Positions 5,738-26,395 of a stretch of 64,000 nt of DNA are shown here, piece by piece. This DNA is from Escherichia coli (GTDB taxonomy: Bacteria; Pseudomonadota; Gammaproteobacteria; Enterobacterales; Enterobacteriaceae), in assembly GCF_011045215.1 (NCBI RefSeq), contig NZ_CP049201.1; one strand, given 5' to 3'. Numbering within the stretch: the first letter of the stretch is position 1; the number at the start of each line of letters is the position of its first letter. A model generated the notes under the pieces. The model was not told the origin of the DNA and ran no database searches. It saw nothing but the letters and a program-made list of their open reading frames with translations. A program made the position numbers and the translations under genes.

Positions 5738-5792
5738 ACATTTCTCCCATAAAAAAACCGCCCCTGAGGCGGTCAGTTGATTTACTTCTTTT

Positions 5793-9571: not shown

Positions 9572-10195
9572 TCACATTTCCTGGTTAGGTTTACGGGTGG
9601 TTCCCCCGCTGTCGCCAGGGTGATCATGAGTATTATAAATTTCGCGAATTTTACTCATGCTGCCGGTTTTATCGGTGATCTCCTGTGAGGCACCGATATT
9701 GCCCAGAACCTGCGTATCGGCATTAATCTTCGTTTCTCCCTGCACAGTCAGGGTATCCGTGATTTCCACCGGACCGTCCAGCGTTCCCCTGCCGGTGATT
9801 TTATAGCTGCCGCTTTCAGCCAGCGTGATGGACAGGGCATTGGCTTTACGGTCGTAACGGATTTCCGTTCCGGTATCAAACAAAATAACATGCTCGTGTT
9901 CACTGCCCGCCGGTACAGGAATGGCGTCAATATTCGCCCCCGGATACACACGACCGTTACGCAGATCGCCCGCCTCCGATATCACCGTGACCGCATCTCC
10001 TGGTGCCGGGTAATTACTGACCTGCATGTAACGCCCGGACTGCATCTGAATCCAGGGCAACGGCGGCGAAAGCACATCTCCGATATCCACCCGAACCATC
10101 ACCGGGTTACCCGGGATCACCTCTTCCACCACGCCGCGACGGATCATGTCCGCCACCCTGCGGCGTAACTCTGCCACTTCATCCGCCAGACTCAT
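9572..10195 (-). CDS. Baseplate spike/assembly protein V
   Basis: Start MSLADEVAELRRRVADMIRRG... resembles P2 gpV N-terminus; ORF track 5' extension to 10354 unlikely to be coding. Confidence 0.75.
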   Translation of the reverse strand: MSLADEVAELRRRVADMIRRGVVEEVIPGNPVMVRVDIGDVLSPPLPWIQMQSGRYMQVSNYPAPGDAVTVISEAGDLRNGRVYPGANIDAIPVPAGSEHEHVILFDTGTEIRYDRKANALSITLAESGSYKITGRGTLDGPVEITDTLTVQGETKINADTQVLGNIGASQEITDKTGSMSKIREIYNTHDHPGDSGGTTRKPNQEM

Positions 10196-10711
10196 CGCCG
10201 GTGCCCTCCGCTTTCCAGATAAGACGATAATCCTGCACATGCTTTTTACCGGTTTCCGGTACTTTACCCAGCCAGACTTCCTGTAACGGCACACCTGCCG
10301 GAGCCGCAAACGGATCTTCGCCGACCGGAATGTCCTGTTCAAAAGAGAAAGCAAACAAACAAGATAATAAGTTGAATTTAAAGGAATAAAAAAGGCATCA
10401 TTTTTGCTTTTGGTACAAATTCTAGTCCGTATAAACGCGGAAAAATCCGCTAAATTAAGATAAAAAAGATGCTTAGATAGTTACTATGTTTAGCTTCATG
10501 GCTACGGGGAGTAAGTTTGCTCTTTGCTTAATCTCGGTTATGGAAATCCCCATATCGGCATCATGCCCACCAGCGTGACGCATTTTTTTTAATTTCGCGG
10601 GTATAAAAATTTGACGAGGCGGGCGGTCCCATAAGCAATGGGGTGTAGGGATTCCGATCCCCCTGGGGGGGGTATTAAACACCCACCCTATTTAAATACC
10701 GTCTTTTTTGT

Positions 10712-10757
10712 CACTGTGTGTCACTGGTTGTCACTCTCCGTCACGGTATGCCACCAT
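10712..10757. repeat. Clustered GTCAC(T) direct repeats
   Basis: tgtcactgtgtgtcactggttgtcactctccgtcacgg: four copies within 46 bp in a noncoding stretch between tail and island. Confidence 0.6.
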
Positions 10758-10760
10758 AAG

Positions 10761-11075
10761 TTAACGTCGTAACCGCTCCGGCTTCTTCCAGTGGTAAGTA
10801 ATTTTTTCTTTCTCCTGGTACATCTGCACGCGGCGACGGTATGACAACATCTCCAGAACTCTGGTGCGTATATTGCGCATATCCACGCCGTTAAGCTCAA
10901 TACCGTCACGGCGCATCACCTCAGCCACCACACGCGCGTAATTTTCGGCTATCACGCTGTCCGGCTGCGTGGCCTCCTGTTTGCCTGCTGGTGGTCTGAT
11001 TCCGGCAGCACGGCGAATCATTTTGAGCATTTCGGCTTCGGTCATTGTCATGGCCTCCGTGGTGATGGAAAACAA
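10761..11075 (-). CDS. Hypothetical protein
   Basis: 104 aa ORF (probable start MTMTEAEMLKMI...) just downstream of island terS; no family recognised. Confidence 0.4.
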   Translation of the reverse strand: MFSITTEAMTMTEAEMLKMIRRAAGIRPPAGKQEATQPDSVIAENYARVVAEVMRRDGIELNGVDMRNIRTRVLEMLSYRRRVQMYQEKEKITYHWKKPERLRR

Positions 11076-11084
11076 TGCCGTAAT

Positions 11085-11310
11085 TGTGGCGGGTCCTTCC
11101 TGGAAAATGAAACACCGGGGGTGGCCATACGCGCAATTCTTAACTGTTTATGAAAATTTTTCGGGAAAAGTCAGATCCGTTCTTCTTCTCTGTAACTCAT
11201 TGTTTAATGGTAAAATCATCAAAAAAAGAAAGGATCTGGCAGTGGTCATTCTGGGCCCAAAATGACGTTATCAGATCCTTTCTCAGTTTTGTTCAATAAT
11301 TGCGCGGTTG
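11085..11310 (+). other. cos-like site, inverted copy (cosQ-cosN-cosB-like)
   Basis: Plus strand GGGTCCTTCCTGG..GAAACACCGGGGGTGGCCATACGCGC..TTTATGAAAATTTTTCGGG..CCGTTCTTCTTC aligns with phage lambda cos as I recall it; opposite orientation to the other two cos sites. Confidence 0.55.
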
Positions 11311-11895
11311 TCACTCAGCTCTCTGTTGCCGTAACTTCTCCGGCACGTTTCCGGTTGTTTCCATCAGATAATCTTCCAGAATGCGGGGCAGGTTATCGGC
11401 AGTTTTAGCGCACGCATTACAGGCGCGTGCTGTTTCCCTCCTCAGGCCATCGATCATTGCCGGAGTCATCGCGGGAAACTGCCTTTGCATCGTAAGGGGC
11501 AAGCTATTCATGATGGTTGAAATCTGTTGCGCCAGTTTAGACAGTGCATACATACAAAAGCCGGTATCTATAACCTCTCCTGTCTCCCTGGCGTTCTTCA
11601 GTTCCTGCCCGTCAGCCTGTGCTTTAGTGAGACGGTATCGTTCGTACTCTGTTGTGCCTGGCTGTAAATCTGATTCACCAACGGCACGTAAATCATCAAG
11701 CTCACTGCGGAGTTTTTCTTTTTCGATCTCCTTCTCCCTCTGTACATACCATTCGATCACCTGTGAAGAGTCGAAAGTCACCTCCATACCTTTTCCGCCA
11801 CCAGATACATGGGGGAGCCCTTGCATCTGCCAACGTTCAATTGTGCGCGGATCAACACCGAAAATCTCTGCCAGTCTCTTTTTGTTAACATTCAT
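11311..11895 (-). CDS. Terminase small subunit (lambda Nu1-like)
   Basis: MNVNKKRLAEIFGVDPRTIERWQMQGLP...GGGKG...LQPGTTEYERYRL... closely resembles lambda Nu1 throughout. Confidence 0.85.
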   Translation of the reverse strand: MNVNKKRLAEIFGVDPRTIERWQMQGLPHVSGGGKGMEVTFDSSQVIEWYVQREKEIEKEKLRSELDDLRAVGESDLQPGTTEYERYRLTKAQADGQELKNARETGEVIDTGFCMYALSKLAQQISTIMNSLPLTMQRQFPAMTPAMIDGLRRETARACNACAKTADNLPRILEDYLMETTGNVPEKLRQQRAE

Positions 11896-12130
11896 TTATC
11901 AAATCCTCATCAAAAACCACCTCCGACATGAAACGCCTGAAAAACGGGATTTTCCGGCGTTATGGTGTCGTATGTTTATTATAGTTAATTTAAATAAAAA
12001 CATAATGTTACATGCAAGAAGTACCGACATGCTTTTTCCCTGAAAAATTTTCATAAATAGTGAAAATCTGCGCGTCTGCCGCCCCGCGGTGTTTCTGATT
12101 CTGGAAAGGACCCGTGAAAATTGGGGCGAT
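11896..12130 (-). other. cos site of island (cosQ-cosN-cosB)
   Basis: Minus strand ACGGGTCCTTTCC..GAAACACCGC GGGGCGGCAGAC GCGCAG..CTATTTATGAAAATTTTTCAGG about 190 nt upstream of terS start, matching lambda cos geometry. Confidence 0.6.
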
Positions 12131-12194
12131 CACCACCGTTCCGGATACAAAAAAAATCGCGAGACCTTGCCAGCCTCGCGAACGTTCATTTCAG

Positions 12195-12620
12195 TTACTT
12201 AACAGACAGCAACAGCTTTTCATCTTCGGTCAGTCCGGCGTTGCCATCACCGGCTGCTGGCCCAACACATTTCGGGCTGTGCTTTTCCATGTACGCTTCA
12301 AACAGAAAAGCCGTTTTCTTTTCCTGCATCATTGCCTGGGCATCCACGGCAGCCAGTAACGTTTGTGCATAGGTTACTGTCATTACTTCAGAACCACACT
12401 CAATCAGCTTACTGGTGAACTCAGGGTATTTTGATGCCAGCGGTAACGCCTTGATACCCTCTATGCGCTGTTTATCACTCTCAGCCTTTGCAGTAAGCAC
12501 CGTTCGGGCTTCTGTCAGTGATGCGCCATTATTTGCGAGATTTTCCGCAAGCGTCGGGTATTTCTGCGCCTCAGGCAGTGCCATGATCAATGCTCTGGTT
12601 GAATTTGCTTTCTCAGTCAT
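12195..12620 (-). CDS. Scaffolding protein (Nu3-like)
   Basis: 141 aa; ALPEAQKYPTLAENL.../ALPLASKYPEFTSKL... repeats resemble the C-terminal repeat region of the prophage C protein (24914-26395). Confidence 0.5.
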   Translation of the reverse strand: MTEKANSTRALIMALPEAQKYPTLAENLANNGASLTEARTVLTAKAESDKQRIEGIKALPLASKYPEFTSKLIECGSEVMTVTYAQTLLAAVDAQAMMQEKKTAFLFEAYMEKHSPKCVGPAAGDGNAGLTEDEKLLLSVK

Positions 12621-12634
12621 AAATCACCACAAAA

Positions 12635-12964
12635 TTATTGCCCTAAAGGCTGCACGGAAATACCGGAACCAACAAAAGACGACACTTTTTTCTCGAACGT
12701 GTCCGCTGTATCAGGCCAGTTAATTTCATCGATATTAAAAACCCCGCACTTATAAACCTGTGCGCGGTTTTTTGTGGCCGTGTTAATGTCCGATATGGTC
12801 AGATACACCGCCTTACCGGGTGTACCGTCCCACTCAACCATCAGGCCCGCGCCGTTCTGCATCAGCGGAGTTCTCGCTTTAATTTCTCCGGCACTGGCAA
12901 AACAGGCCAGCGTGCTGACCAGTTCCTGCGTGCCGGAAAGGAATTGCGTGTAAGGTGTTGGCAT
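12635..12964 (-). CDS. Head decoration protein (lambda gpD-like), divergent second copy
   Basis: 109 aa; TPLM...GLMVEWDG...VYKCGVF...WPD...GSGISV pattern matches gpD. Confidence 0.75.
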   Translation of the reverse strand: MPTPYTQFLSGTQELVSTLACFASAGEIKARTPLMQNGAGLMVEWDGTPGKAVYLTISDINTATKNRAQVYKCGVFNIDEINWPDTADTFEKKVSSFVGSGISVQPLGQ

Positions 12965-12974
12965 ACGATCCCCT

Positions 12975-14030
12975 TTATTTCACTTCGACGGTAACAAAGC
13001 GACCAATATCCACGGGTACTGGCTGCGGGGCGCTGTGCGTCTGCACGTATTCAATCGCCGGATCGCCCGGTACGATATAATTTTTCGGGTAGTACATCCC
13101 CTCAGAAAATCCCTCGCGTGCCGCGTCCTGATCCATGATGGCACCATAAGCAACAAGGCCTTTATTTTCGGTATTGCCGAAAACCATCATGTTTTGTTTC
13201 AGGAAATATTGCTGCTGCCCGTTTTCGTCGTCATAACGACCGGAATAAACCACGATCGCCACATCACCGAGATACCCCTTGAAGCTGACAACGCCGCCCA
13301 AATCTTTTAGCGCAAGTTCAAGTGACGAGTTTGAACCGCGACGCGTGTCCATTAGTTCGCGGAATCGACGGAACGAGCGCAAAATACGCCAGGCTTCGCC
13401 ACCCATGACGATAATATTTACCGTACCTTCGGAAAAATCAGCGTAAGCCTCAATGTCGCTTATCGGATCAAACGTTTCGGCATCCTGTTTTGACCATTCT
13501 TTCCCGCCAGCCTGCGTAATATGATTGGTTTCGGGTAATCCCCAGTCAATTTCATAACGCTCAATGCCTTCGCCCTCAATAACGTTACGGCCTGTTGTGA
13601 TGGCATTGACCGCCAGCCATTCAACACGCGCTTTGATGGCAGCAAGCTGTTTTTTCTGGCTGTCGTGAACCATTTTTACGCGGCGTAGTGCCGGGGAAGA
13701 CTGACCATTGCCGATCTGTTCTCCAGGCATGCGCATGATTGTTTTGGTGGGATCAATAACGTGTTTGGGCTTCATATAACCCGGCGTGAACGTGTTCGTT
13801 GTGAAACCTTTGTCACGCATAACCTGGCTGCCTGACATTGGAGAACAAAACGGACTCATGACCACGTTTTCAATATCCAGCGTATCAAGTGCAATATCTC
13901 TGGTGCTGAAAGTAGCGACGTTCGGAAAGAACAACGTAGTAAAGAGTGGATTAAATTTAAATTCCGGCACATCTTCGCGCCCGATATTTTTCAGTAGCGT
14001 TGGTGTGCTTACCAGTTGCGGCGCTGTCAT
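12975..14030 (-). CDS. Major capsid protein (lambda gpE-like), divergent second copy
   Basis: 351 aa; TPGYMKPKH, NITQAGGKEWSKQDAETFDP, DTRRGSNSSLELALKDLG motifs shared with lambda E and the prophage E at 23439-24467. Confidence 0.85.
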   Translation of the reverse strand: MTAPQLVSTPTLLKNIGREDVPEFKFNPLFTTLFFPNVATFSTRDIALDTLDIENVVMSPFCSPMSGSQVMRDKGFTTNTFTPGYMKPKHVIDPTKTIMRMPGEQIGNGQSSPALRRVKMVHDSQKKQLAAIKARVEWLAVNAITTGRNVIEGEGIERYEIDWGLPETNHITQAGGKEWSKQDAETFDPISDIEAYADFSEGTVNIIVMGGEAWRILRSFRRFRELMDTRRGSNSSLELALKDLGGVVSFKGYLGDVAIVVYSGRYDDENGQQQYFLKQNMMVFGNTENKGLVAYGAIMDQDAAREGFSEGMYYPKNYIVPGDPAIEYVQTHSAPQPVPVDIGRFVTVEVK

Positions 14031-14236
14031 TACTCACCCCCATGAGGCTGATTCATACCAAGCGCAGCGCGTAAATGGCTGCGTACCATCCAGCCGACTG
14101 ACGGCTTCACCAGGCACAACGGATCAAGGCCGATTTTTTTTCCTGCCTCTGCGTTCTCCTCAAAGCGCGCATTAAGTGCGGCGATAATATCGGGGCTGAT
14201 GTACACGGATACACCGCCCGGCTTCTGTGTTCCCAT
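14030..14236 (-). CDS. Hypothetical protein
   Basis: Small ORF immediately upstream of island capsid gene; no family recognised. Confidence 0.3.
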   Translation of the reverse strand: MGTQKPGGVSVYISPDIIAALNARFEENAEAGKKIGLDPLCLVKPSVGWMVRSHLRAALGMNQPHGGE

Positions 14237-14494
14237 AAATGAGATTCCTCTTTGACTAAAAAACAAACATAACGAAAAGTCATGTCATGATTTTAATTAT
14301 CGTTGCACTTTTTGCAATATAATTGACTATTGTTGCGAATAATGAAATCATTATGTCGTGGTTTTAATCCTTGTACCACAGAGTTGTTTAGCATTAATCA
14401 CGTTAGCGGCGTGAAATCCCCCGGAACCTCATCCCGGGGGATTTTTTTGCGCACAAAAAAGCCGGGAAAAATCCCGGCTTCTGTCACTCGTTGC

Positions 14495-14917
14495 TTAAAA
14501 CGGTATTTCATCCCCGTACGGATCATCATTTCCCGCCTGTTGTTTTGCTCTGCTCAGTGCATCAGTAGCCTGCCCCTGTTGGCCTTTTTTGCCGCCCGGT
14601 CGCGCCGTTCTGGCACTGATTACACTGTCTGCGATAACCTGCCAGCTCTGCCGCGTTTCGCCGTTCTGGCCTGTCCACTGGCTTACCTGCATGTTACCCG
14701 CCACGCTCACCAGTTCGCCTTTGCGGTGTTTTGCCAGTGCGTCGGCCTGTCTGCCAAACGCCAGGACGGATAACCACATCGTCGCCGTTCCGTCATCTGC
14801 CTGGCTGCACGGCAGGGGAACCGCCATACTCGCCATCGCCATTTGTGTTCCCTTGCTGGTGGTCTTTAACTGCGGGTCAGCCACCAGCCGCCCGTAAGCT
14901 GCTATCTGTGCTGTCAT
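14495..14917 (-). CDS. ssb: Single-stranded DNA-binding protein
   Basis: 140 aa with Gly/Gln-rich linker and acidic C-terminal tip ...DDPYGDEIPF typical of SSB. Confidence 0.7.
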   Translation of the reverse strand: MTAQIAAYGRLVADPQLKTTSKGTQMAMASMAVPLPCSQADDGTATMWLSVLAFGRQADALAKHRKGELVSVAGNMQVSQWTGQNGETRQSWQVIADSVISARTARPGGKKGQQGQATDALSRAKQQAGNDDPYGDEIPF

Positions 14918-15165
14918 GCTGTCTGCTCTCCGGTTTTAACGTTGATGGTTGTCACCTGTTCCGCTTCGGCAATCTCCCGCTCTGTCAGCGTGGCAAAGTT
15001 TGCCGCCGCTGTGGTCATGAATGCGCTTATCAGTTCGGGATGTGCTTTTGCGTATCCTTCTCCGGCATGGCGGTCTATTGTTCTGATTGCCACCTTTAAG
15101 GCGTGCTCTGTCATGTCTAACGCTTTATATTTTGGCGCTGTCTTATCTCTGGTTTTTTTGGTCAT
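14914..15165 (-). CDS. Hypothetical protein
   Basis: 83 aa ORF between replication gene/iterons and ssb. Confidence 0.4.
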   Translation of the reverse strand: MTKKTRDKTAPKYKALDMTEHALKVAIRTIDRHAGEGYAKAHPELISAFMTTAAANFATLTEREIAEAEQVTTINVKTGEQTA

Positions 15166-15188
15166 TTCTCACTATTCCCCACTTTTTC

Positions 15189-15367
15189 GCCTCACTTTTT
15201 AAGCTCCCAACATGATTTCCAACCTTGTTTTTTTGTGATTCTAATATGTTGTTTTTCAATGTGTTTTTTATTCCTCACTTTTGAGCCTATATACAGGTTG
15301 AAAAGTGAGGGGCGCGGTTGCTTTTTGTTCAGTTTCTGCTATCCCCTCACTTTTGTGCCTCACTTTT
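15189..15367. repeat. Iteron cluster (putative island replication origin)
   Basis: CCTCACTTTT at 15189, 15273, 15345, 15358 plus inverted copy AAAAGTGAGG at 15301, directly 3' of helicase-primase gene. Confidence 0.55.
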
Positions 15368-16782
15368 TACAGTGGGCGCACATCATCACCGTCAATAGTG
15401 ATAACGCCGTCTCTTTCCAGCTTGTACAGCCAGCGCCGAAAGTTTTTCATCTCATACCCCAGCTTTTTCATATCATCACGCAATAACGGGATAGTGCATT
15501 TATCGCCGCGCTGTGTGCGTGAACGGATACAGCCCCATAGCGCGGCGTGATTCTCCGTCTTGTTTCCGGCCTCCTCAATGCGCTCCAGTTCAACAGGTGG
15601 GCGCGGCTTATCCACTACCACCAGCGACGTGATTAACTCCTTGTCAGCGTCGATAAAAAGCTCCACCACGCGTAAATCGTATGCGGCCTCTTTCAGTTCC
15701 TCTGCGTCCTTCATTTTGGTGCAGGAGATAACCAGGGCTTCACTGTCTGCACCTTCCCGGCGAATACGGTATTCAGCGTCCAGAGATGCACGAAATGCAC
15801 TGGAACCACGCGCCCCCTTTGTTTCATCCTTGCCGGAATGGTGAACCACCAGTACCGTGGCCCCTGTGCGTCGTTTCAGTTCGTCACATCCACGGATAAA
15901 CGCCCCCATATCCCGCGCGTCATTTTCATCATTACCGCCAAAACACCGCGCCAGCGTATCCAGAATAATCATGCGTACCGGTTTACCCGTTTCCCTTTCA
16001 ACCTGGCGGGAAGCGATGACCATTTCATCAATATCAAACTGTGCTGCCGGAAAAATCGGGCGGTTTACCAGGTACAGATTTTTCACCCGTTCATCATTAA
16101 CGATTTCCCATGCTTTGATACGACGAGGGACACCAATGCCACCTTCACCGACGACATACATCACCGAACCATGCGCCACCCTGCGGCCTCCCCAGTGGCG
16201 ACCCGTGGCAACATGACACGCCCAGGAACACGCGAGGAATGATTTATAGGAACCGCTCGCGCCGTATGTGCTGCACAACGAATTAGCCGGAATCACGCCC
16301 TTAACGACATAATCAAGCTGTGTGTCGTACCCTGCAGATCCAATACTCATTGGTAGCGTGGTTTTTCGCTGGTCGTTTTTTTCTTCCTCCGGTATCTCTC
16401 CGGACCGTCTTTTCTGGCGCTCTCGTTCCAGATATTCGCGCCACCCCTCCCGCTTCTGGCTGTGCATTCCCTCAGGGTAATAATTCGCATCCCGTACACC
16501 TGCCGCTGCCAGCTTTTGCCCGATGGCATTAATATTTGACGGCTTGATGTGGCCTGCCTTGTACAGCCGGACACAATAGCGACCATCGTCGATAATTTTC
16601 AGGTCAGCCAGTTCGTCAAGATGGCTGTCTCCAAGCCATACAGGCGGAACATTGTCGCCAGCAAGTCGCCCGTCCTGCTCCTGCCATTGTTTCGCGTGCG
16701 CCCAGGCATCACTACCCGCAAAAATAATGACTTCGGTCATTTTGTCGTGCGGCTGTTTTTTTAAGTTCGGTGCCAGTTTCAT
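15367..16782 (-). CDS. Replication protein, RepA-like helicase/primase (AAA_25-type P-loop NTPase)
   Basis: 471 aa; Walker A GASGSYKS, Walker B RMIILDTLARCF, ...VLVVHHSGKDE...; N-terminal extra domain. Confidence 0.7.
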   Translation of the reverse strand: MKLAPNLKKQPHDKMTEVIIFAGSDAWAHAKQWQEQDGRLAGDNVPPVWLGDSHLDELADLKIIDDGRYCVRLYKAGHIKPSNINAIGQKLAAAGVRDANYYPEGMHSQKREGWREYLERERQKRRSGEIPEEEKNDQRKTTLPMSIGSAGYDTQLDYVVKGVIPANSLCSTYGASGSYKSFLACSWACHVATGRHWGGRRVAHGSVMYVVGEGGIGVPRRIKAWEIVNDERVKNLYLVNRPIFPAAQFDIDEMVIASRQVERETGKPVRMIILDTLARCFGGNDENDARDMGAFIRGCDELKRRTGATVLVVHHSGKDETKGARGSSAFRASLDAEYRIRREGADSEALVISCTKMKDAEELKEAAYDLRVVELFIDADKELITSLVVVDKPRPPVELERIEEAGNKTENHAALWGCIRSRTQRGDKCTIPLLRDDMKKLGYEMKNFRRWLYKLERDGVITIDGDDVRPL

Positions 16783-17078
16783 TTTTTACCCCTGAATGCG
16801 TTAATCATGTTTTTCATTTTCTGAATGTTCGCCCGTGCCTTTGCGTTGCTGGTGGGCTGTTTGCATGGCGTGGCCTGTATCAGTGAAAAATCACGCCGGA
16901 ACTGATAAACAGGCATCACGCAGTCATAGCCGTACCCATCACGGCGGTAAGTAACGCACCGTCCCGCCACGCTTTTAATCGTTACCGTGCCGCCGTAGTT
17001 ATCCCGGAAAATATCGCCGGGGCGGATTTCAGGCCGAGCGGGGCCGCTGGCAGTAAAGCCAGAAATTTTCTGTTTCAT
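16779..17078 (-). CDS. Hypothetical protein
   Basis: 99 aa ORF, start overlaps helicase-primase gene. Confidence 0.4.
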   Translation of the reverse strand: MKQKISGFTASGPARPEIRPGDIFRDNYGGTVTIKSVAGRCVTYRRDGYGYDCVMPVYQFRRDFSLIQATPCKQPTSNAKARANIQKMKNMINAFRGKK

Positions 17079-17094
17079 GGTTTTTATTCCTCTG

Positions 17095-17294
17095 CGCGGG
17101 TCTTGTTGTGTATTTCCATAACCGCGTTTAATTCATCAATAACCGGGGTTAACAGAGTGCTGAAAGCAGAAAATAAATCCCCCCCCCTGTTCGGCATGAA
17201 CTTCGGTTAATTTAATTAATACCGCTTTCATTTCCAGTGCCCGGTTTAATGCATTCTCAGAATGAATAAGAACATCGAAAGGGATTTTATCCAT
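17095..17294 (-). pseudogene. Small ORF interrupted at G9 homopolymer (frameshift or phase-variable)
   Basis: ATG at 17294 reads MDKIPFDVLIHSENALNRALEMKAVLIKLTEVHAEQGGG then poor frame; with G8 it continues ...DLFSAFSTLLTPVIDELNAVMEIHNKTRAEE to a stop 5 nt before next gene. Confidence 0.35.
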
Positions 17295-17753
17295 GGCTTA
17301 CATCCTCCGGGAATTTTCTTCTGTAACGCGCCTCTGCAACATATTCCGCATAGTCCGACGCAATATTGAGAATCTCCACACCCTCTGACCTGTAGCCACT
17401 GGTACTGATAAGAAAAAATGCGGCTTTCATCATGTCGGCAACGCATAACAACGCATCGCCTGTATGTTCCGGTGCGCCATCAAATTCCTGTTTCAGGGCA
17501 TTAAAACGATCATCACGCATAACCCCCCCCCATTTTCACAATCAGTAATCAGGATGGCTTTAGCCTCATTCAGTGCCATATCAGCACTAAATTGCATAAC
17601 AGCCAGTGAGTGAGGAACGAAATCCCCGGCATATTCTGTTTCGCTGGTGGCGTGCTTATGTGCCCTGTCCGCGATAACAGAAATATCAATCAGCGCGTGC
17701 ATCAGCGTTTTGATGGCTTCGGCGGCTGCGTCCTGACGGGTGTTATTGCACAT
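17287..17753 (-). pseudogene. Gene split by G9 homopolymer (86-aa + 77-aa ORFs; fuse with G10)
   Basis: ORF 17493-17753 ends ...CENGGGLCVMIVLMP; one extra G in the tract at 17523-17531 gives ...GGGVMRDDRFNALKQEF... continuous with ORF 17287-17520. Confidence 0.4.
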
Positions 17754-17949
17754 GGCGCACCTCCTGACGAATACGGGCGGCGAATACCATCACGCAGCCA
17801 TCAGGAGATTGCTGACGCGCTTCCTGTTCGTTGGTGGCCTCAATGGTAATCACGCGCGGTTGTGCCGTGCTCAGGGCGATAAAACGCCAGATGTATTTAT
17901 TCAGGTTGTGCGAGTCCCGCCCTTGCGGGTGTGTGGTATGATTTAACAT
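17743..17949 (-). CDS. Small protein, first gene of leftward island operon (Cro-like position)
   Basis: 68 codons (MLNHTTHPQGRD...RHVQ) with RBS GAGGT; divergent from RHH gene across operator region; not in ORF track as a separate ORF. Confidence 0.4.
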   Translation of the reverse strand: MLNHTTHPQGRDSHNLNKYIWRFIALSTAQPRVITIEATNEQEARQQSPDGCVMVFAARIRQEVRHVQ

Positions 17950-18088
17950 AGCTACCTCGATAATCTTGCTATCGTTGGTGGTTAGACGCCCTGCATGTGT
18001 ACCACCACTGCGGGGCGTTGCGTTTTTTGATGTGCACGTGTTAAGGTGTACACCTAACGAACCAAAACATAACGCCATAGGTGTACAC
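17950..18088. promoter_or_regulatory. Divergent promoter/operator region of island
   Basis: Perfect palindrome GGTGTACACC at 18045-18054 and GGTGTACAC at 18080-18088 just before the RHH start; CACGTG at 18033. Confidence 0.5.
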
Positions 18089-18283
18089 ATGTCAACAGTT
18101 ATTAAGCGCGATAAAAAACAAAAAGGCACAGGAAAGGCCCCACCATTCCATATGCGTATAGTCCCTGAATTGAAGGAGCAGTTTGATAACGAAGCCAGTA
18201 ACGATGGAGTAAGTCTTGCCAACTGGCTTAAAGAGTTAGGGCGCAAAGAACTGCTACGGCGCGGAATTGAACCAAAGGGATAA
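18089..18283 (+). CDS. Ribbon-helix-helix-like DNA-binding protein (putative island repressor or antitoxin)
   Basis: 64 aa from MSTVIKRDKKQKG...; basic N-terminus, start right after operator palindromes. Confidence 0.45.
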   Translation: MSTVIKRDKKQKGTGKAPPFHMRIVPELKEQFDNEASNDGVSLANWLKELGRKELLRRGIEPKG

Positions 18284-18292
18284 CTATCACTA

Positions 18293-18823
18293 ATGTCGCA
18301 ACCAGAGGAGTTGCGACTCCGAAGATTACATAGGAAATTAATGATTATGGGATTCGTCATTTTCATTGCGATCGTAATTTTATCCATTTACGTTCTTACC
18401 AAATTATTTATTTCAGAAAATTCACACGACAAAATTAGAGCCGAGGCATCCAGAAGAATTGCACAAGAAGAGGCCGAACGGGCTAAGTTGTATGAAGAGA
18501 GAAAGGAATCATCTGATAATCCTGTTAATAAACAAAAACGAATAACAACACACGAAGATCATTTTTATATGGATATTCATGGTGGTCACAAATATATATG
18601 TGTTGATGCTAAGTTAGTTTTTGAATATGCAAATTTAAAACACAACTATTTTCTTCACGCCTCTCACTATTTCCCTGAGTTAGAGTATGTTTATGGAAAA
18701 AACGAACATGGGAAAATAGTTAGAGTAGATTTGTACGATAAAAAAATTCAAGCTATTAACCCCGATACTGGCGAAAAAATACCTGGTGTGAGACGTTATC
18801 TACGACAGCACAAGATAAAATAG
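18293..18823 (+). CDS. Hypothetical membrane-anchored protein (AT-rich cargo gene)
   Basis: 176 aa; N-terminal TM helix MIMGFVIFIAIVILSIYVLTKLF; markedly AT-rich; followed by hairpin+T-run terminators. Confidence 0.45.
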   Translation: MSQPEELRLRRLHRKLMIMGFVIFIAIVILSIYVLTKLFISENSHDKIRAEASRRIAQEEAERAKLYEERKESSDNPVNKQKRITTHEDHFYMDIHGGHKYICVDAKLVFEYANLKHNYFLHASHYFPELEYVYGKNEHGKIVRVDLYDKKIQAINPDTGEKIPGVRRYLRQHKIK

Positions 18824-19238
18824 CCCACCGGAATTTTTTTCCGGTTACGCTTTGCCCACCAGCCGCAAATGTGGCATTGTTGGCTATGCTCATGCGTTGG
18901 GGATAACGCGCAATTAGTGTTGAAGGGCCACCGTAGCGGGTGGCCTTTGTTTTGCCTGTTATCCGGCAATTGTGGCGCTTCGCCACACGGTTGATATAAT
19001 CCTCCTGCACAGATTCATTTTTTGCGCAGCAGGTTAATTGTTCGCAAGGGCGCTCCGGCAACTGGGCGCTTTTTGTTTTTACCCACCAGCACAATAAAAA
19101 TCTTCATTTTCCATTTTTGCAAAATTTCATGCTTTCCGGACGACTGGCCATATGTCATTTTTTAGCAGAAGATTTTGCCTTGCTGGTGGGTAGCTTCCCG
19201 GTTAACACGATGTACCGTATAATCAGCACCGCACGCGG

Positions 19239-19820
19239 TTACTGAATACGCTCACCAAAGTAAAACTCAGGCTGATATTCACGTATCAGCCTTTTTTCTT
19301 CTTCCTCCAGCTCACGCTTTTTGCGCTTACATGCCTGTAGTTCCCTCCCCTTCTCGCTGGCACTTATCTGGTATTGCTCTTTGCGACGGGAAAAATCCTG
19401 TAATGCGCCCCACGGGATACCATAAGCCCCCGTTTTTCTGATACCCGGTATCACATTTCTGAATACCCAGTTACTGAAACGATGGGCGAACGTGCCAGGA
19501 GTAGCAGCTTTTCGACTTCTGGCAATCAGCTTGTAAAAACCAGATTCAGAAACGACGCTATGATTTGGATTTCCGCGAATACCGTAAGTTAAAGTTACGG
19601 TATTACTTTCATCATCATCCAGAGCTTGCAACGCCATGCGTGAATTAGTCAGTTCCAGCGCAGCGCAGACATCCTTTGCAACAAACCACGGATCGCCGTT
19701 CAGATACACCACGCGAACGTTCACACTATCAAAGCGCAGAACGACCAGATCACGAATATCACAGAATTTTTTCACTGGACGTGCGTCACCCTTGCCAGTC
19801 ACGGCAATATTTTTATTCAT
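19239..19820 (-). CDS. Bro-N domain protein (putative antirepressor)
   Basis: 193 aa; N-terminal ...GDPWFVAKDVCAALEL... Bro-N-like; coiled-coil C-terminus. Confidence 0.55.
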   Translation of the reverse strand: MNKNIAVTGKGDARPVKKFCDIRDLVVLRFDSVNVRVVYLNGDPWFVAKDVCAALELTNSRMALQALDDDESNTVTLTYGIRGNPNHSVVSESGFYKLIARSRKAATPGTFAHRFSNWVFRNVIPGIRKTGAYGIPWGALQDFSRRKEQYQISASEKGRELQACKRKKRELEEEEKRLIREYQPEFYFGERIQ

Positions 19821-19870
19821 CGCTTTTTACCTCACATACAAAAAACCCCGCATTGCGCGGGGTATATCAA

Positions 19871-20080
19871 TCATTGACGATATTCATTAGCTTGTTTTCG
19901 TTGTCTTTCCAGCCACGATGCAACATCATCACGATGCCATGCGTTGCGTCGCCCAATCTTAAAGGGGCGTGGAAATTTATTTTTTTCATCATTCATGAAA
20001 GCGTAAAATGCACTCATTGCACCGTAGCGAAGCTCTGCCATCACGTCTTTGGTAAATAGAATATTGCCGTTAGTGCTCAT
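19871..20080 (-). CDS. AlpA-family transcriptional regulator/excisionase-like
   Basis: 69 aa, ...RRNAWHRDDVASWLE... typical AlpA/Xis HTH; immediately downstream of P4-type int. Confidence 0.75.
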   Translation of the reverse strand: MSTNGNILFTKDVMAELRYGAMSAFYAFMNDEKNKFPRPFKIGRRNAWHRDDVASWLERQRKQANEYRQ

Positions 20081-20086
20081 ATTGCC

Positions 20087-21319
20087 TCACATATTCACTA
20101 CTTTTAGCCCCTGATGACCACCAGAACGACGGATAATTCCCTTTCTGGCATCATCAACAAAATCACCAATCCATTGCATCATGATCTTACGTTGCTCAAA
20201 ATATTTTGAGCGATTATAAATATCACGAATAGCATCGCCGCTTTTATGGGCTAATGCTGCCTCAATAACATCTGGGTTAAACCCTTCTTCGTTGAGTAAC
20301 GTACTCCACATAGCCCGGAATCCGTGGGCAGTTGCAATACCATAAAATTGTCCATCTTTGAAACACTTATGACGCAACACGCTTGATATAGCTTTCCCCG
20401 GATTCTTTGGAGAAAAAAATATATAGCTACCACATTTTATTTTATTCATTTCATTTAAAATATCCACGGCTTGCCGTGAAAGCGGAACTACGTGTTCACG
20501 TCCACACTTCATTCTTTCAGGGGGAATTGTCCAGATACAATTTTCTAAATCAATTTCCTCCCATTTTGCCTCCCTTGCTTCACATGGTCGTACCATAGTG
20601 AAAATCTGGAACAAAAGAGAGCATCTTATAGAGATATTACTTGTAGTATCCCACCAGTTCAAAAATTCTGATAACAGTTCAACTGGTAATGCCTTTAATG
20701 GGGTATGTTTTTTTGTTGCAAATGCATTTCTTATTGTTGATAGCGGGTTATTTTTAATTACTCCAGAGTTAACACAGTAATTCATTATTTCATTAATTTT
20801 TGAAATAATTTTATCCAATACAGAATTACGATCAGAAAATTGATTAAGCAATGGTATGACCACAGGCGCGGTCATATCATGTATGTACACATTTCCAAAT
20901 ACAGGGATTATATGTCTGTTCAATAACTCTTCTATTGTCTGTAAAGTCGACAGTCGCAAATCACCTTTTTTCTTAAAATTAAACCATTCAATTGCAATAG
21001 CACCAAACGTCTGTAAGTGCTTTCTTTTAGCCTCGAGTCGTTTTTCTGCCCGGTATGATAACGGATCTATATCCCGTGCCAACAATCTGCGCAGATTATC
21101 GCGTTCTTCTCTGGCTTCAACCAGCGTGAAATCGGGGTATCGCCCTATAGTGTATGTTTGCCGCTTCTTCGTAAAAGGTTGTACATAACGAAAACGCCAC
21201 GATTTACTACCGGCTTTTGACACATAAAGCAAAAGCCCAAACCCATCATATAGAGCGTAATCTTTCTCTCGTGGCCTGGCGCTTTTTACCTCTGATGCAG
21301 TAAGAGGCTTCACCGACAT
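20087..21319 (-). CDS. Tyrosine integrase, P4/CP4-57 type
   Basis: N-terminus MSVKPLTASEVKSARPREKDYALYDGFGLLLYVSKAGSKSWRFRY typical of P4-like integrases; C-terminal catalytic domain ...AHGFRAMWSTLLNE... Confidence 0.9.
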   Translation of the reverse strand: MSVKPLTASEVKSARPREKDYALYDGFGLLLYVSKAGSKSWRFRYVQPFTKKRQTYTIGRYPDFTLVEAREERDNLRRLLARDIDPLSYRAEKRLEAKRKHLQTFGAIAIEWFNFKKKGDLRLSTLQTIEELLNRHIIPVFGNVYIHDMTAPVVIPLLNQFSDRNSVLDKIISKINEIMNYCVNSGVIKNNPLSTIRNAFATKKHTPLKALPVELLSEFLNWWDTTSNISIRCSLLFQIFTMVRPCEAREAKWEEIDLENCIWTIPPERMKCGREHVVPLSRQAVDILNEMNKIKCGSYIFFSPKNPGKAISSVLRHKCFKDGQFYGIATAHGFRAMWSTLLNEEGFNPDVIEAALAHKSGDAIRDIYNRSKYFEQRKIMMQWIGDFVDDARKGIIRRSGGHQGLKVVNM

Positions 21320-21433
21320 ACAAGCACTCCAATACAAATTTTTTCTAGTCCATGCGCTGGTTCCTTTTGCCAGAATACTGGCGATAAAAAAGCGAAAAAC
21401 AAGGAACAATGCACACAATGAAAAAACCGCAAC

Positions 21434-21898
21434 TTATTGAATAAGAAGAAAAACAAAAAGAAACGGTAACGAAAGATAATGATTGCATAGTCCAAAAGAG
21501 ACACGGAAAACGATGTAGTCGTCCAGCAGTCGGTCGAAGGTATCCACCTCAGCATCAATAAAAACCGCCGGATCAACGTTATCCAGCCCGAACGTGGCTC
21601 CATCAATCCAGTCAGATAAATCCATTGCCAGACAGCGGGCAAATATCTGCGGTTTTGGCACGTTTTCCGTCTTTCCGGCCCGATCAGTCACCACAAACAG
21701 ATCGCATTTCAGCGTGACCCGTGTCTGCCCGTCGGCAAACTGAGCCTTGTCCCAGCCGGGTACATCCACAAACACGGCAGGCGTCACCAGTTGCGTCACT
21801 TTTTCCGGGTACTCATCGGCATCTTCCACCCAGGGAATTTGTTTCAGACTGTCAATCACTGCCTGATGCCAGGTTCCCATCATCAATGGTTCCATCAT
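21434..21898 (-). CDS. Putative tail-completion/head-tail adaptor-like protein, C-terminus atypical at island junction
   Basis: 154 aa after Z-like gene; last about 20 residues (LCNHYLSLPFLFVFLLIQ) are low-complexity and read into the A-rich junction next to island int. Confidence 0.4.
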   Translation of the reverse strand: MMEPLMMGTWHQAVIDSLKQIPWVEDADEYPEKVTQLVTPAVFVDVPGWDKAQFADGQTRVTLKCDLFVVTDRAGKTENVPKPQIFARCLAMDLSDWIDGATFGLDNVDPAVFIDAEVDTFDRLLDDYIVFRVSFGLCNHYLSLPFLFVFLLIQ

Positions 21899-23438: not shown

Positions 23439-24467
23439 TTATTTCACCTGAACCACCACAAACGCGTCCGGATCCGGCAACACCATCAACGGCGCAGACT
23501 GCGTCATGGTATATTCGCACCCCGGGTCCCCCACCTCTAACCAGTGTTTCGGATAACGAATTGCAGAGGTGATCCCTTCACTCAGCGCCTGGTTATCCTG
23601 GATTGCGCCATAACAACGGACACCCTCCACCTGAGTGTTTCCAAGAATCAGTGTGCCTTCCGGCAGATAACGCTGCTCATCCCCGTTTTCATCAACATAC
23701 GTTGTTTTCGCCACCATGATGGCCAGATCACCGTAATAACCTTTAAAAGAAACCACGGAACCCAGATCTTTCAGCGCGGTTTCCAGTTCAGATTTTGAGC
23801 CACGGCGGGTATCCAGTTTTTCACGAAACAGCTTAAAACCGTTCAGCATACGCCAGACAGTACCGTCCATAATCGCAATATTGATGGTACCGGAAGCAAA
23901 ATCGCAGTACGCATCCAGATCATGCGTCGGATCAAAGGTGTCAGCATTCTGTTTTGACCATTCGCGTCCCCCTGCCTGCGTTATGTTATTGGCGGCAGAA
24001 CGTCCAAAATCCACTTCCACCGTCTCAAACTGTTCACCGCTCATGGTGTACTTACCCTGCAGAACAGCGCTGACCGCCTGCATTTCTTCCACCTGCACAA
24101 TCGCCTGCTCTTCCTGTTTCAGGTTATCAGTCAGAATACGCAGGCGACGGTAGGCCGGGTCATTAAGACGGGCCGGATCTTCCCCCGGAAGACGCTCCAC
24201 CGCCTGCTGATAATCCAGCCGGTGTTTTGGTTTAACATAGCCGGGGCGTAACACGCGGGTTTCACCACCACGACTGCGCAGTACCTTACCTGACACAACC
24301 GGAGACACATATGCCGCAACCGGTGTTTTTCCGGTGATTTTATCCAGCATCACTTCCTGAGTATGGAAAGTGACCGTACGACGAAAAAACAGCTCCAGAA
24401 ACAGCGCACGGAATTTCACTTTCTGCTCGGTGTAGCCGAGCAACTGACGCGTGGTAAATAACCCCAT
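23439..24467 (-). CDS. Major capsid protein (lambda gpE-like)
   Basis: ...AAYVSPVVSGKVLRSRGG...PGYVKPKH...VQVEEMQAVSAVLQGKYTMSGE...DTRRGSKSELETALKDLG very close to lambda E as recalled. Confidence 0.9.
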   Translation of the reverse strand: MGLFTTRQLLGYTEQKVKFRALFLELFFRRTVTFHTQEVMLDKITGKTPVAAYVSPVVSGKVLRSRGGETRVLRPGYVKPKHRLDYQQAVERLPGEDPARLNDPAYRRLRILTDNLKQEEQAIVQVEEMQAVSAVLQGKYTMSGEQFETVEVDFGRSAANNITQAGGREWSKQNADTFDPTHDLDAYCDFASGTINIAIMDGTVWRMLNGFKLFREKLDTRRGSKSELETALKDLGSVVSFKGYYGDLAIMVAKTTYVDENGDEQRYLPEGTLILGNTQVEGVRCYGAIQDNQALSEGITSAIRYPKHWLEVGDPGCEYTMTQSAPLMVLPDPDAFVVVQVK

Positions 24468-24537
24468 AATTGACTTTCCTTTAAAAACACAAACGAACCG
24501 CATCACGACCCGTTTTTTTCAGTTAATCACTTCACCA

Positions 24538-24903
24538 TCAGGCGTGGCTGATGGCACTTCCCACAAACGCGTTGGCTTTTTTCACCGCATCCACCGAATC
24601 CGGCCAGACCAGCGATTCGGTGGCAAACGTACCGCTTTTGTAGTACGTCAGTGTGGGCTCGGTCCCGGCCAGCGCCAGTGCCAGTACCCCCACAGCCGTT
24701 CCGGCTTTCTGACCATCCCATGCCACCAGTTTTCCGCTGGCGTCATCCAGCATCAGTGGCGTCAGTGAAGGCGTGGCAACACTGATACCGCTGGTACCTG
24801 TTGCGGTATACACCGGATCGCTTCCGGCAAAAATGCGCCCGTCCGCACGCTTTTCTGTGGTGGTTTTAATCATTTTCTCAGTCTCCTGATTTATCTGAAT
24901 CAC
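24538..24903 (-). CDS. Head decoration protein (lambda gpD-like)
   Basis: ...TPLMLDDASGKLVAWDG...YYKSGTFATESLVWPD...GSAISHA matches gpD. Confidence 0.85.
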   Translation of the reverse strand: MIQINQETEKMIKTTTEKRADGRIFAGSDPVYTATGTSGISVATPSLTPLMLDDASGKLVAWDGQKAGTAVGVLALALAGTEPTLTYYKSGTFATESLVWPDSVDAVKKANAFVGSAISHA

Positions 24904-24913
24904 GGATCCCCGC

Positions 24914-26395
24914 TTACGGCATACTCATCAGCAGTTCTTCTTCCCCGTTCCCGGCAGTTCCGCCACCGGAAACGGCACTGGCGGCATGCTGTGCCATGAA
25001 GCGCTCAAAAAGTGTTACCTGTGACGGTTGCGATACTGATGGCGCAGCTGCCAGCAGTGTTTTCGCCTGGTCCACTGTCATTCCCGGCTGTTCAGCCAGC
25101 GCCTGTGCCAGTTTTTCGCGTCCTTTTGCTTCCGGAAGTGCCATTATCTGCTCGCCGGTACTTGCCGCACCGGTTGCCGGTGCCGCTGCCAGTAACATTT
25201 TCGCCTGTTCCACCGTCATTCCCGGCTGTTCAGCCAGCGTCCGTGCCAGTTGTTCACGCCCTTTTGCTTCCGGAAGTGCCACAATCTGATCGCCAGTACT
25301 GTCAGTACCGGCAACCGGTGCCGCTGCCAGTAACGTTTTCGCCTGCTCAACTGACATTCCCTGCTGACCTGCCAGCATCTGCGCCAGTTTTTCGCGTCCT
25401 TTCGCCTCCTGACAATTCAGGATCCCCATCACGCGCTGATTTTCCTGGGACACCGCTTCAGCAACGGTGAGATTTTTTGTTGTCATCGTATTCTCCTGTG
25501 TAACAGAGTCGTTCAGAGCAGAAACCATTACATCAACGGCATCTGCAGCATTAATCAGTTGATCAGCCAGGCCTGTATCAATGCCTGCCTGACCGTCATA
25601 AACGGCAGCCTCGGTATTCATCACCACCTCTGAACTCAGCCCCGTATAAAGTGCCACCTTGTCGACAAACATCCGGCGGGCCTCATCAATACGGCGCTGA
25701 AAATCCGCACGCACACCTGTCGGCAACGCCTGAATACTGTTGCCGTCAACCTTGTGCTGCCCGGAGTAAATCAGCGTGATATCCACCCCTTCCTGTGCCA
25801 GTTGTTTCTCATAACTGATGTGCGCCATCATCACACCAATCGAACCAATTTTTGCCGTCTGCGTGACCAGCCGACGCGTACAGGCTGCCGCCAGCAACAT
25901 GGCGGCTGAACAGGCCATGTCATTACACAGCGCCCACACGGGCTTCTGTTCCCGCAGACGGTAAATCATGTCAGCACAGTCAAACGCCCCGGCAGCCTGA
26001 CCGCCAGGACTGTCGATATCCAGCAAAATACCGCGCACATCCGGATCATTCACCGCCAGCTGAAGACGGGCGGTAAGACCGTCATAGCCTGTCATGCCAG
26101 AGTAAGGCCTCAGGGTACCCATTTTATGTACCAGCGTGCCGCTCACCGGCAGAATGGCGATGCCATTTTTCACCTGATAGCATTTTTCAGGACGCCGGCC
26201 ACCAGACATATAGTCCGCCACCGCCAGTTGCATACCGTCGGCATCAAGCTGAACATCCAGTTGCGGAACGGAAAGACTGCCCGCCCCCATCTCCTTACCC
26301 AGCGCGCAAAAGAAAACCCGCGCATAGGCGGGTTCCAGTAAAAGCGGTTCATTAAATGCCATGGCGGCAATATGCGATAAATTACGACGCATCAC
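24914..26395 (-). CDS. Head maturation protease/scaffold (lambda gpC-Nu3-like, S49 peptidase family)
   Basis: 493 aa; SppA/ClpP-like core ...GILLDIDSPGGQAAG...; C-terminal repeated scaffold-like segment. Confidence 0.85.
   Translation of the reverse strand: MMRRNLSHIAAMAFNEPLLLEPAYARVFFCALGKEMGAGSLSVPQLDVQLDADGMQLAVADYMSGGRRPEKCYQVKNGIAILPVSGTLVHKMGTLRPYSGMTGYDGLTARLQLAVNDPDVRGILLDIDSPGGQAAGAFDCADMIYRLREQKPVWALCNDMACSAAMLLAAACTRRLVTQTAKIGSIGVMMAHISYEKQLAQEGVDITLIYSGQHKVDGNSIQALPTGVRADFQRRIDEARRMFVDKVALYTGLSSEVVMNTEAAVYDGQAGIDTGLADQLINAADAVDVMVSALNDSVTQENTMTTKNLTVAEAVSQENQRVMGILNCQEAKGREKLAQMLAGQQGMSVEQAKTLLAAAPVAGTDSTGDQIVALPEAKGREQLARTLAEQPGMTVEQAKMLLAAAPATGAASTGEQIMALPEAKGREKLAQALAEQPGMTVDQAKTLLAAAPSVSQPSQVTLFERFMAQHAASAVSGGGTAGNGEEELLMSMP
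25030..25390 (-). repeat. Three in-frame tandem repeats of about 108 bp within the protease/scaffold gene
   Basis: Protein repeats ...GMTVEQAKxLLAAAP...TGxQIxALPEAKGREKLAxxLAEQP... x3; DNA repeats read directly. Confidence 0.6.

Follow-up and report, generated by a model that had tools for sequence, protein, structure and literature searches.

A probable helper-embedded PICI of the EcCICFT073 family within a late gene of an Escherichia coli prophage

We analysed a 64,000-nucleotide stretch of Escherichia coli DNA (contig NZ_CP049201.1 of assembly GCF_011045215.1; this whole stretch is called the window below), in which a prophage is interrupted by an 11-kb block of satellite-like genes. The block is very probably a Gram-negative phage-inducible chromosomal island (PICI) that belongs to the EcCICFT073 family, is helper-embedded (HE-PICI) in configuration and was inserted with its own tyrosine integrase into a late gene of the neck/tail-completion region of a ~43-kb prophage. 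Three features are new here, namely the place of integration, the lineage of the integrase and the cassette of TerS and cosB; the element itself is ordinary. An initial annotation, made from the letters of the window, had already proposed a satellite-like island, and all the genes that it listed were recovered when the open reading frames (ORFs) of the island were annotated by profile searches with PHROGs, Pfam and NCBIfam. The same annotation took the combination of genes to be unrecognised and not that of a classical PICI. This claim of novelty was wrong, because the block represents the standard late zone of Gram-negative PICIs in a published helper-embedded configuration: its gene order and backbone match those of EcCICFT073, and a capsid gene is present in 21 of the 29 reference Gram-negative PICIs (PMC10111431).

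Limits, target gene and gene content of the island

The island and EcCICFT073 share the order DUF4222 gene, rep, small ORF, gene for the single-stranded DNA-binding protein (SSB), small ORF, capsid gene, decoration gene, gene for ~140 amino acids, packaging-specificity gene and gene for ~100 amino acids. By blastn, the regulatory region, rep, the SSB and capsid genes and the terminal region showed collinear DNA similarity of 67-92%, and collinear similarity was also found to 11capE, the founder of the HE-PICIs, which we located in strain NRG857c. At the protein level, the identity to EcCICFT073 was 64.5% for the capsid protein, 70% for SSB, 74% for the product of the terminal gene, and 62% for the N-terminal 141 amino acids of Rep as compared with Pri. 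In addition to this homology and synteny with reference PICIs, the block has an end-located int with att repeats, alpA after int, iterons 3' of rep, a size within the 10-20 kb class, and cos together with a packaging-redirecting gene.

The two prophage flanks were joined and used as query against 5426 complete E. coli genomes. The flanks were contiguous, with the island absent, in 76 of these genomes, the site of strain C5 being 99.8% identical. By alignment to the empty site of C5, the limits of the island were determined to be 10349 and 21489, on the minus strand; the block had been placed at 10370-21430 in the initial annotation, which was right as to its existence and needed correction at both ends. 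The repeat GTYCAAAAGAGA flanks the island on both sides. Its two versions, GTTCAAAAGAGA and GTCCAAAAGAGA, share a perfectly identical 9-bp stretch, CAAAAGAGA, and occur at these two places and nowhere else in the window. An uninterrupted attB was found at positions 2138-2149 of L004. The junctions and the fragments of the target gene are as follows.

10337..10348: attR core GTTCAAAAGAGA at the distal junction, a direct repeat, from alignment to the empty site
21490..21501: attL core GTCCAAAAGAGA at the int-proximal junction, a direct repeat, from alignment to the empty site
10179..10336, minus strand: 3' fragment of the target gene (last ~53 codons), overlapping the start of the baseplate V gene
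21502..21883, minus strand: 5' fragment of the target gene, running on into ~19 unrelated island-encoded codons and then a stop

In C5 the site is an intact gene of 183 codons (phrog_1072), located between a Neck1-like gene and the gene for baseplate V. The alignment to this empty site and the uniqueness of the repeats altogether indicate an element of 11,153 bp (11,141 bp plus one 12-bp core), which splits the late helper gene after ~codon 130. The island had been thought to lie between the head and tail modules; it interrupts a gene instead. Since the 5' fragment reads into ~19 unrelated codons, the attP carries no replacement for the end of the gene. The intact 183-amino-acid target protein matched no family in Pfam or NCBIfam, which leaves the site without a name under the Pfam-based nomenclature of HE-PICIs.

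The GC content is 37-52% for the island as compared with 53-55% for the flanks. Among other strains, SA53-3 and the Stx2-converting prophage of CFIAFB20180511 have the island backbone at this neck-gene site. The backbone was also found inside gpA-type TerL genes in TUM9812 and AREA_492 and, in TUM1881, at tRNA-Pro (between yejM and yejO) together with an integrase of 40% identity. The empty sites and the location in TUM1881 bear out the proposal of a satellite that is nested in the resident prophage and mobile independently of it. No tRNA genes were found within the window.

Could the block be ordinary contiguous DNA of the resident phage, such as a block of moron genes or a duplicate of the head module? 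It lies inside the prophage and is co-oriented with the late operon: the minus strand encodes the main island genes (int, alpA, rep, capsid, terS) as well as nearly every long ORF in the first ~46 kb of the window. This explanation is, however, effectively refuted. The flanks are joined in the 76 genomes mentioned above, the block splits a gene, and the composite prophage of ~54.5 kb reaches ~126% of the length of the helper, which is ~43 kb without the island. Furthermore, no record among 50,697 phage genomes carried the block as contiguous DNA, the sole match being terS/cos with ~73% identity to phage 21. The initial annotation had named such a phage as the finding that would speak against a satellite.

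The genes and sites for integration, regulation and replication are listed below.

20087..21319, minus strand: tyrosine integrase with P4-type arm-binding architecture, 410 amino acids (phrog_1, E 5e-67; NF007246)
19871..20080, minus strand: AlpA-like excisionase/regulator, 69 amino acids (phrog_66, E 2e-5), in a conserved position directly after int
19845..19863, minus strand: terminator-like hairpin between alpA and the Bro-N gene
19239..19820, minus strand: Bro-N domain/anti-repressor-like protein (phrog_2593, E 1e-82)
18089..18823, plus strand: oppositely oriented two-gene cassette of low GC content, made up of the next two ORFs
18089-18283, plus strand: Arc/ribbon-helix-helix-like protein, 64 amino acids (phrog_228, E 9e-5)
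18293-18823, plus strand: ORF of 176 amino acids, without family
18045..18089, divergent regulatory region: two palindromic boxes GGTGTACAC(C/A), one exact and one with 1 mismatch
17287..17753, minus strand: two small ORFs (phrog_2512), Icd-like by annotation in relatives
16779..17078, minus strand: DUF4222 protein (phrog_285), a conserved neighbour of PICI rep genes
15367..16782, minus strand: replication protein, RepA-family helicase (Pfam AAA_25)
15177..15367, directly 3' of rep: putative replication origin (ori) with six CC(T/C)CACTTTT iterons
14495..14917, minus strand: SSB (phrog_44, E 1e-40)

The replication gene had been described as a RepA-like helicase-primase followed by iterons. 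The helicase and the six iterons were confirmed, but a primase domain was not detected in Rep by Pfam. Six of the eight CCTCACTTTT-like matches (at most 1 mismatch) in the 64-kb window fall within the 190 bp of 15177-15367. As for the operators proposed in the divergent switch, one exact and one 1-mismatch copy of GGTGTACACC were found 35 bp apart within 18045-18089, which is weak evidence when taken alone.

At the position of the 18089-18823 cassette, different genes are present in related islands. The 176-amino-acid ORF matched nothing in PHROGs, NCBIfam or PADLOC, and no defence system was found by PADLOC among the unassigned ORFs of the island; the cassette is a candidate for accessory, immunity or defence cargo. 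P4-like immunity RNAs of the C4 and isrK families are reported in some PICI Bro zones, and neither was found in the Rfam search. The sole Rfam match was to ncr1175, a Bacillus small RNA, at 14411-14480 (minus strand) between SSB and the capsid operon; with 35.6 bits against a gathering score of 60, this sub-threshold match is most likely due to chance. Near the other end of the island, a repeat finder detected three copies of a tandem 10-bp unit containing GTCAC at 10708-10747, downstream of the last island gene and ~370 bp from attR. This run could be a protein-binding array, for instance for excisionase, AlpA or an integrase arm.

Packaging module and capsid genes

The packaging module of the island consists of a small terminase gene between two cos sites, followed by a conserved terminal gene. 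It is listed here together with the corresponding genes of the helper.

12035..12127, minus strand: cos1, with cosQ GGGTCCT, cosN and phage-21-like cosB R sites, upstream of terS
11311..11895, minus strand: Nu1-type small terminase (phrog_57, E 8e-63)
11077..11169, plus strand: cos2, another cos-like site, in inverse orientation to cos1; its cosN flank is helper-like
10761..11075, minus strand: conserved terminal PICI gene (phrog_1561), 74% identity to the last EcCICFT073 gene
~30700-30790: helper cos
30051-30560, minus strand: helper TerS
28163-30115, minus strand: helper TerL
26382-27953, minus strand: helper portal
24914-26395, minus strand: helper protease/scaffold (S49)
24538-24903, minus strand: helper D
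23439-24506, minus strand: helper E

The initial annotation reported a cos in the island; a cos is present, with the correction that two sites flank terS in inverted orientation. Alignment with the cos of phage 21 and that of the helper indicated that cos1 is complete. Its cosQ and left cosN flank are helper-like and its cosB R sites are phage-21-like, the helper cosB being unrelated to that of either the island or phage 21. Within the island TerS, residues 1-110 are 68-80% identical to phage 21 gp1 and 24-50% identical to helper TerS, whereas residues 111-194 are 32% identical to phage 21 gp1 and 50% identical to helper TerS. The region of lambda TerS equivalent to residues 111-194 binds TerL (Murialdo and Feiss review). 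As judged from these alignments, the island TerS looks chimeric, composed of a phage-21-like DNA-binding half that matches the island cosB and a helper-like TerL-binding half.

In sister islands with 95-99% identical integrases, the same slot is occupied by an RppA-like gene (84-98% identity to RppA), indicating that the slot is a swappable cassette for packaging specificity. Among helpers that are otherwise ~93% identical, terS and the first ~40 codons of terL also vary jointly as a cassette, either phage-21-like or with a divergent TerS of 169 amino acids (28163-30560 as compared with L012 and L013). The helper in the window has the divergent TerS, with 37% identity to phage 21 gp1, and its terS/terL type matches the C-terminal tail of the island TerS. 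We considered that the choice of island cassette, own TerS or Rpp, might track the TerS type of the helper; this was rejected since SA53-3 combines the TerS cassette with a phage-21-type helper TerS. A cos-flanked slot carrying either Rpp or a chimeric Nu1-type TerS offers a natural experiment on how the specificity of cos packaging is redirected.

A P2/P4-cos-like string, GACGAGGCGGGCGGTCCC, was noticed at 10613-10630. It agrees in 10 of 11 bases with the P2 cos end, the start of the P2/P4 cohesive end being GGCGAGGCGGG.... The candidate was dropped, such a match being, by our estimate, expected about by chance for an 11-kb island.

Upstream of the packaging module in the direction of transcription lies the capsid operon.

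12975..14030, minus strand: lambda-E-type major capsid protein, 351 amino acids (phrog_29, E 2e-97)
12635..12964, minus strand: lambda-D-type head decoration protein (phrog_49, E 5e-18)
12195..12620, minus strand: stand-alone Nu3-like scaffold-domain protein, 141 amino acids (phrog_1999 and C-terminus of phrog_53)
12157..12181, minus strand: strong terminator-like hairpin after the capsid, decoration and scaffold genes

The similarity of the 141-amino-acid protein to gpC-type proteases is confined to their C-terminal Nu3/scaffold part (phrog_53 positions 500-577); by tblastn, residues 365-487 of the helper gpC showed 35% identity (E 2e-8) to the island gene. It has no protease domain and no Pfam family, and its NCBIfam match was at chance level. 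The island capsid protein showed 64.5% identity with c1499 of EcCICFT073, 56.5% with the capsid protein of 11capE and 46% with E of the helper. PICI capsids overall range between 57 and 65%, and the identity to any capsid among the 50,697 phage records is 47% or less; the island capsid is therefore of an old PICI lineage and not a recent capture. The dN/dS ratio of the capsid gene was 0.07-0.10 against three close alleles, and those of the decoration, scaffold-like and terS genes, which are much shorter and hold few substitutions, were 0.2-0.6. This purifying selection indicates that the genes of the capsid region are functional.

The island might also be regarded as the decayed, immobile remnant of a second lambdoid prophage within another prophage. 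Phage-derived genes are indeed present (capsid, decoration, TerS, cos, integrase), and any activity of this copy is a prediction from sequence. This reading is nevertheless highly improbable: the ORFs are intact, with dN/dS ratios of 0.07-0.3 for the late-zone genes, the att repeats are precise, attB is found uninterrupted in other genomes, many genomes keep the compact architecture of 11 kb at several att sites, and the arrangement of rep, iteron ori and alpA is typical of PICIs and not of lambdoid phages.

The presence of the E/D/Nu3-like/Nu1-like set, unaccompanied by TerL, portal and protease, was correctly recognised at first reading. When the helper TerL, portal and protease domain were searched by tblastn against the island in six frames, no match had an E value below 0.02, and the terL or portal homologues that could have argued against a satellite were thus lacking. 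PHROGs matches of the island ORFs included no tail or lysis genes, no head-tail adaptor or connector genes, and none of the Sid, Psu, Delta, Epsilon and alpha-primase families. These results bear on whether the island is a capsid-forming PICI (cf-PICI) or a P4-like satellite. It does share a capsid gene with the former and a P4-type integrase and alpA with the latter. However, the cf-PICI genes for TerL, portal, protease and head-tail connectors are lacking in the six frames, in agreement with the initial annotation, which had set the island apart from elements with a complete head set; no match to a Sid, Psu or Delta-type family was found, and the cos is of lambda/21 type and not of P2 type. 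We give this assignment hardly any probability.

A more serious alternative is a distinct type of satellite, 'semi-capsid-forming' and placed between classical PICIs and cf-PICIs. Its E', D' and Nu3' proteins, with its own chimeric TerS and cos, would build satellite-specific and possibly small shells, and portal, protease, TerL and tail would be borrowed from the helper; such shells may be visible only with natural myovirus-tailed helpers. Full-length capsid and decoration genes and a stand-alone scaffold domain in a terminator-bounded unit, the low dN/dS of the capsid gene, a PICI-specific capsid lineage, the island's own TerS and cos, and a size of 11.15 kb, about a quarter of the helper genome, are all in favour. 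On the other hand, this gene set is standard in Gram-negative PICIs and does not define a separate type, and four units of the island (44.6 kb) fit a helper-sized head. The capsid (c1499) and decoration (c1500) genes of EcCICFT073 were reported in 2018, and deletion of c1499 or c1500 left transfer and interference unchanged; c1499 was replaced by a marker in that work because no phenotype was found. EcCICFT073 with tetA inserted in c1501, the gene after c1500, was still transferred, and its DNA packaged with a lambda helper was all phage-sized (PMC6092414). We therefore regard the semi-capsid-forming type as unlikely. In the PICI of the EcCICFT073 family that we favour, the E', D' and Nu3' genes are probably accessory, for interference or modulation of the helper range, and not an essential route to a capsid. 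A helper with lambda-like head and contractile tail provides a new context for finding the role of the capsid, decoration and scaffold-like genes of PICIs.

The early region of the helper itself is lambdoid, its head is lambda-like and its tail is contractile. The prophage looks complete, with a partial gpD-like tail gene at ~1 and, at its other end, int (53176-54306), which adjoins ompW. Besides the genes listed above, PHROGs identified FI, head closure Hc1 and a Neck1/tail-completion protein in the head module, and baseplate V (9572-10354), tail sheath (4262-5824) and a tape-measure-like protein in the tail module. In close relatives of the helper that also combine a lambda-like head and a contractile tail, toxin genes are located upstream of the lysis genes, namely Stx2 with an i-type B subunit in the helper of CFIAFB20180511 (L012 27851-29092), and the B subunit (SubB) of the subtilase AB5 toxin in that of SA53-3 (L013 1-243). 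No toxin cargo was recognised in the window helper, including the slot equivalent to these toxin genes. A low-GC stretch (42.5%) of its late-regulatory region encodes a 336-amino-acid ORF (35903-36913, plus strand) that has no NCBIfam family and may be a moron or defence gene. In C5 (L010 1-11460), the tail end of the helper abuts an oppositely oriented phage-like region with baseplate J and tail fibre genes, which suggests a tandem or adjacent prophage at the locus. TUM9812 (L005) carries, besides its prophage-embedded island, a second PICI capsid-decoration-scaffold block with 98.4% identity elsewhere on the chromosome, indicating that several related PICIs can share one strain.

Integrase lineage and integration specificity

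The assignment to helper-embedded PICIs of the EcCICFT073 family has several points to set against it. The AlpA assignment is weak, the match of this ORF to Pfam Phage_AlpA being of i-E 6e-4. Because the C-terminal domain of the island TerS is just 50% identical to that of the helper, its docking to helper TerL is plausible only, and the island of SA53-3 has the same TerS type within a helper carrying phage-21-type TerS and TerL N-terminus. A dN/dS of ~0.1 for the capsid gene implies some role that this assignment does not account for. The life-cycle steps proposed below are drawn by homology from the work on EcCICFT073 and 11capE. Finally, the island departs from the published HE-PICI clade in two sequence features. 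The published survey took a TBLASTN score of at least 400 bits to the 11capE integrase clade as its cutoff, and the island integrase gave 92 bits and 27% identity and its sampled relatives 53-97 bits; the HE-PICI attP motif TGTATTGC was found nowhere in the window.

The integrase of the island is 99.5% identical to that of SA53-3, 94.6% to that of TUM9812 and 27% to 11capE Int. Around the att core, an alternative repeated motif, GGACTAGAA..AATTTGTA, is located at ~-77 and +155. The att core, in both orientations, had no match in the attL/attR files of the HE-PICI paper, and the target gene and site are not among the 14 published HE-PICI sites. Four of the 5426 complete E. coli genomes carry the integrase, two at the neck gene and two at gpA. 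The neck-gene and gpA integrases are 94.6% identical and have homologous arms, with the cores GTCCAAAAGAGA and GTCCAGATGTG, respectively, the gpA site lying at ~codon 331; the TUM9812-type gpA core GTCCAGATGTG was not found in the TerL gene of the window helper. These integrases form a natural pair for studying a switch of integration specificity.

By protein search, relatives of the integrase were detected across Enterobacterales in a graded series from 99% down to 47% identity, and a bit score of ~390-400 sets apart the clade with at least 47% identity. We examined the genomic context of ten relatives with 42-71% identity and of one IMG/VR contig. In all of them, the integrase gene was found in a prophage late region and co-oriented with it, followed by an AlpA-like ORF and PICI-type genes. 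The contexts were as follows.

IMG/VR contig and Enterobacter, Klebsiella, Buttiauxella, Salmonella and E. coli: following a gpA-type TerL that is cut short at ~333 codons, or an uncalled gap of ~1 kb in its place after terS
E. coli: following a TerS of the Terminase_2 family
E. coli: following a Pa193_gp24 gene
Cluster that takes its name from Raoultella ornithinolytica: following a PF09950 major capsid gene that is truncated
Enterobacter: after a sheath-initiator gene
Yersinia: at the 3' end of a Phage_portal_2 gene

The sampled relatives span at least seven enterobacterial genera and are 22-27% identical to 11capE Int. These protein comparisons suggest a second integrase clade that targets prophage late genes and shares no more than 27% identity with the published HE-PICI clade. 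An independent origin of this clade is our tentative inference from a small sample (the ten relatives and the contig). The authors of the HE-PICI survey anticipated further HE-PICIs, and the second clade lies outside their survey. As a novelty, such a clade is more likely than a semi-capsid-forming satellite. Helper embedding would then not be confined to the published integrase clade.

Proposed life cycle and comparison with known satellites

After SOS induction, the helper would be excised and replicated as the composite. Expression of int-alpA could be switched on by late transcription of the helper and/or by AlpA, and excision of the island within the 9-bp identity would restore the helper gene (...CCGTGTCTCTTTTGAACAGG...). 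Since the composite reaches ~126% of the helper length, we infer that excision is probably needed before the helper is packaged. The island would be replicated from the iteron ori with the RepA-type helicase and SSB. The island TerS would bind the phage-21-like cosB of cos1, and its helper-like C-terminal domain would recruit helper TerL, which would cut the helper-like cosN; one polypeptide may thus perform the work of the Rpp-TerS heterocomplex of EcCICFT073. Island DNA would be packaged, most likely as concatemers of about four units, into heads made with the portal and protease of the helper, to which tails of the helper would be joined. Four times 11.15 kb makes 44.6 kb as compared with the ~43-kb helper, which is consistent with the packaging of concatemers reported for EcCICFT073.

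Among known satellites, EcCICFT073, the model for PICIs of Gram-negative bacteria (Fillol-Salom et al. 2018, 2019), is the closest, with the gene order and collinear DNA described above, the same size class and a cos-type helper with lambdoid head. It also has two cos sites around its packaging gene, the cos-like motifs opposing each other across rppA, and both sites are functional (PMC6092414). EcCICFT073 differs in being chromosomal and not inside a prophage, and its pri encodes a D5-type primase whereas the island has a RepA helicase. Packaging of EcCICFT073 is redirected by the Rpp-TerS heterocomplex (PMC6739421), RppA hijacking the helper TerS; the island, in contrast, encodes a Nu1-type TerS of its own, together with a phage-21-like cosB. 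Homologues of terS are known in some Gram-negative PICIs (PMC6092414).

Nesting in a late gene of the helper and co-orientation with it were described as the helper-embedded satellite (HES)/HE-PICI configuration (Tommasini, Mageeney and Williams 2022/2023). With 11capE and other HE-PICIs, the island shares the disruption of a late helper gene, the co-orientation of its genes, an attP that has no replacement sequence, its own E-type capsid and decoration genes and the four-zone organisation. It lacks their doubled tgTGTATTGCa motif, located at ~-81 and +132 of the attP centre. It also differs in the contractile tail of its helper and in carrying terS, which 11capE does not have.

A satellite-encoded HK97-fold major capsid protein and a small terminase are shared with cf-PICIs (Alqurainy et al. 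2023). The cf-PICIs, however, encode TerL, portal, protease and head-tail connectors as well and steal only tails, whereas the island has none of these genes. With P4, the island shares the P4-type integrase fold, the AlpA-like regulator, a Bro-type gene and cos packaging by a helper. It differs from P4 in the lack of Sid, Psu, Delta and alpha-primase homologues, in its lambda/21-type instead of P2-type cos, and in the possession of a capsid gene, which is absent from P4.

Two functional analogies are found in the pathogenicity islands of Staphylococcus aureus (SaPIs), which are unrelated Gram-positive elements. SaPIbov5 encodes a homologue of the capsid protein (Ccm), as the island does, but Ccm makes small capsids whereas no phenotype is known for the capsid homologue of E. 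coli PICIs. The TerS_S of pac-type SaPIs is likewise a small terminase encoded by a satellite, by which the large terminase of the helper is redirected to the DNA of the satellite, with the difference that it acts in headful and not in cos packaging.

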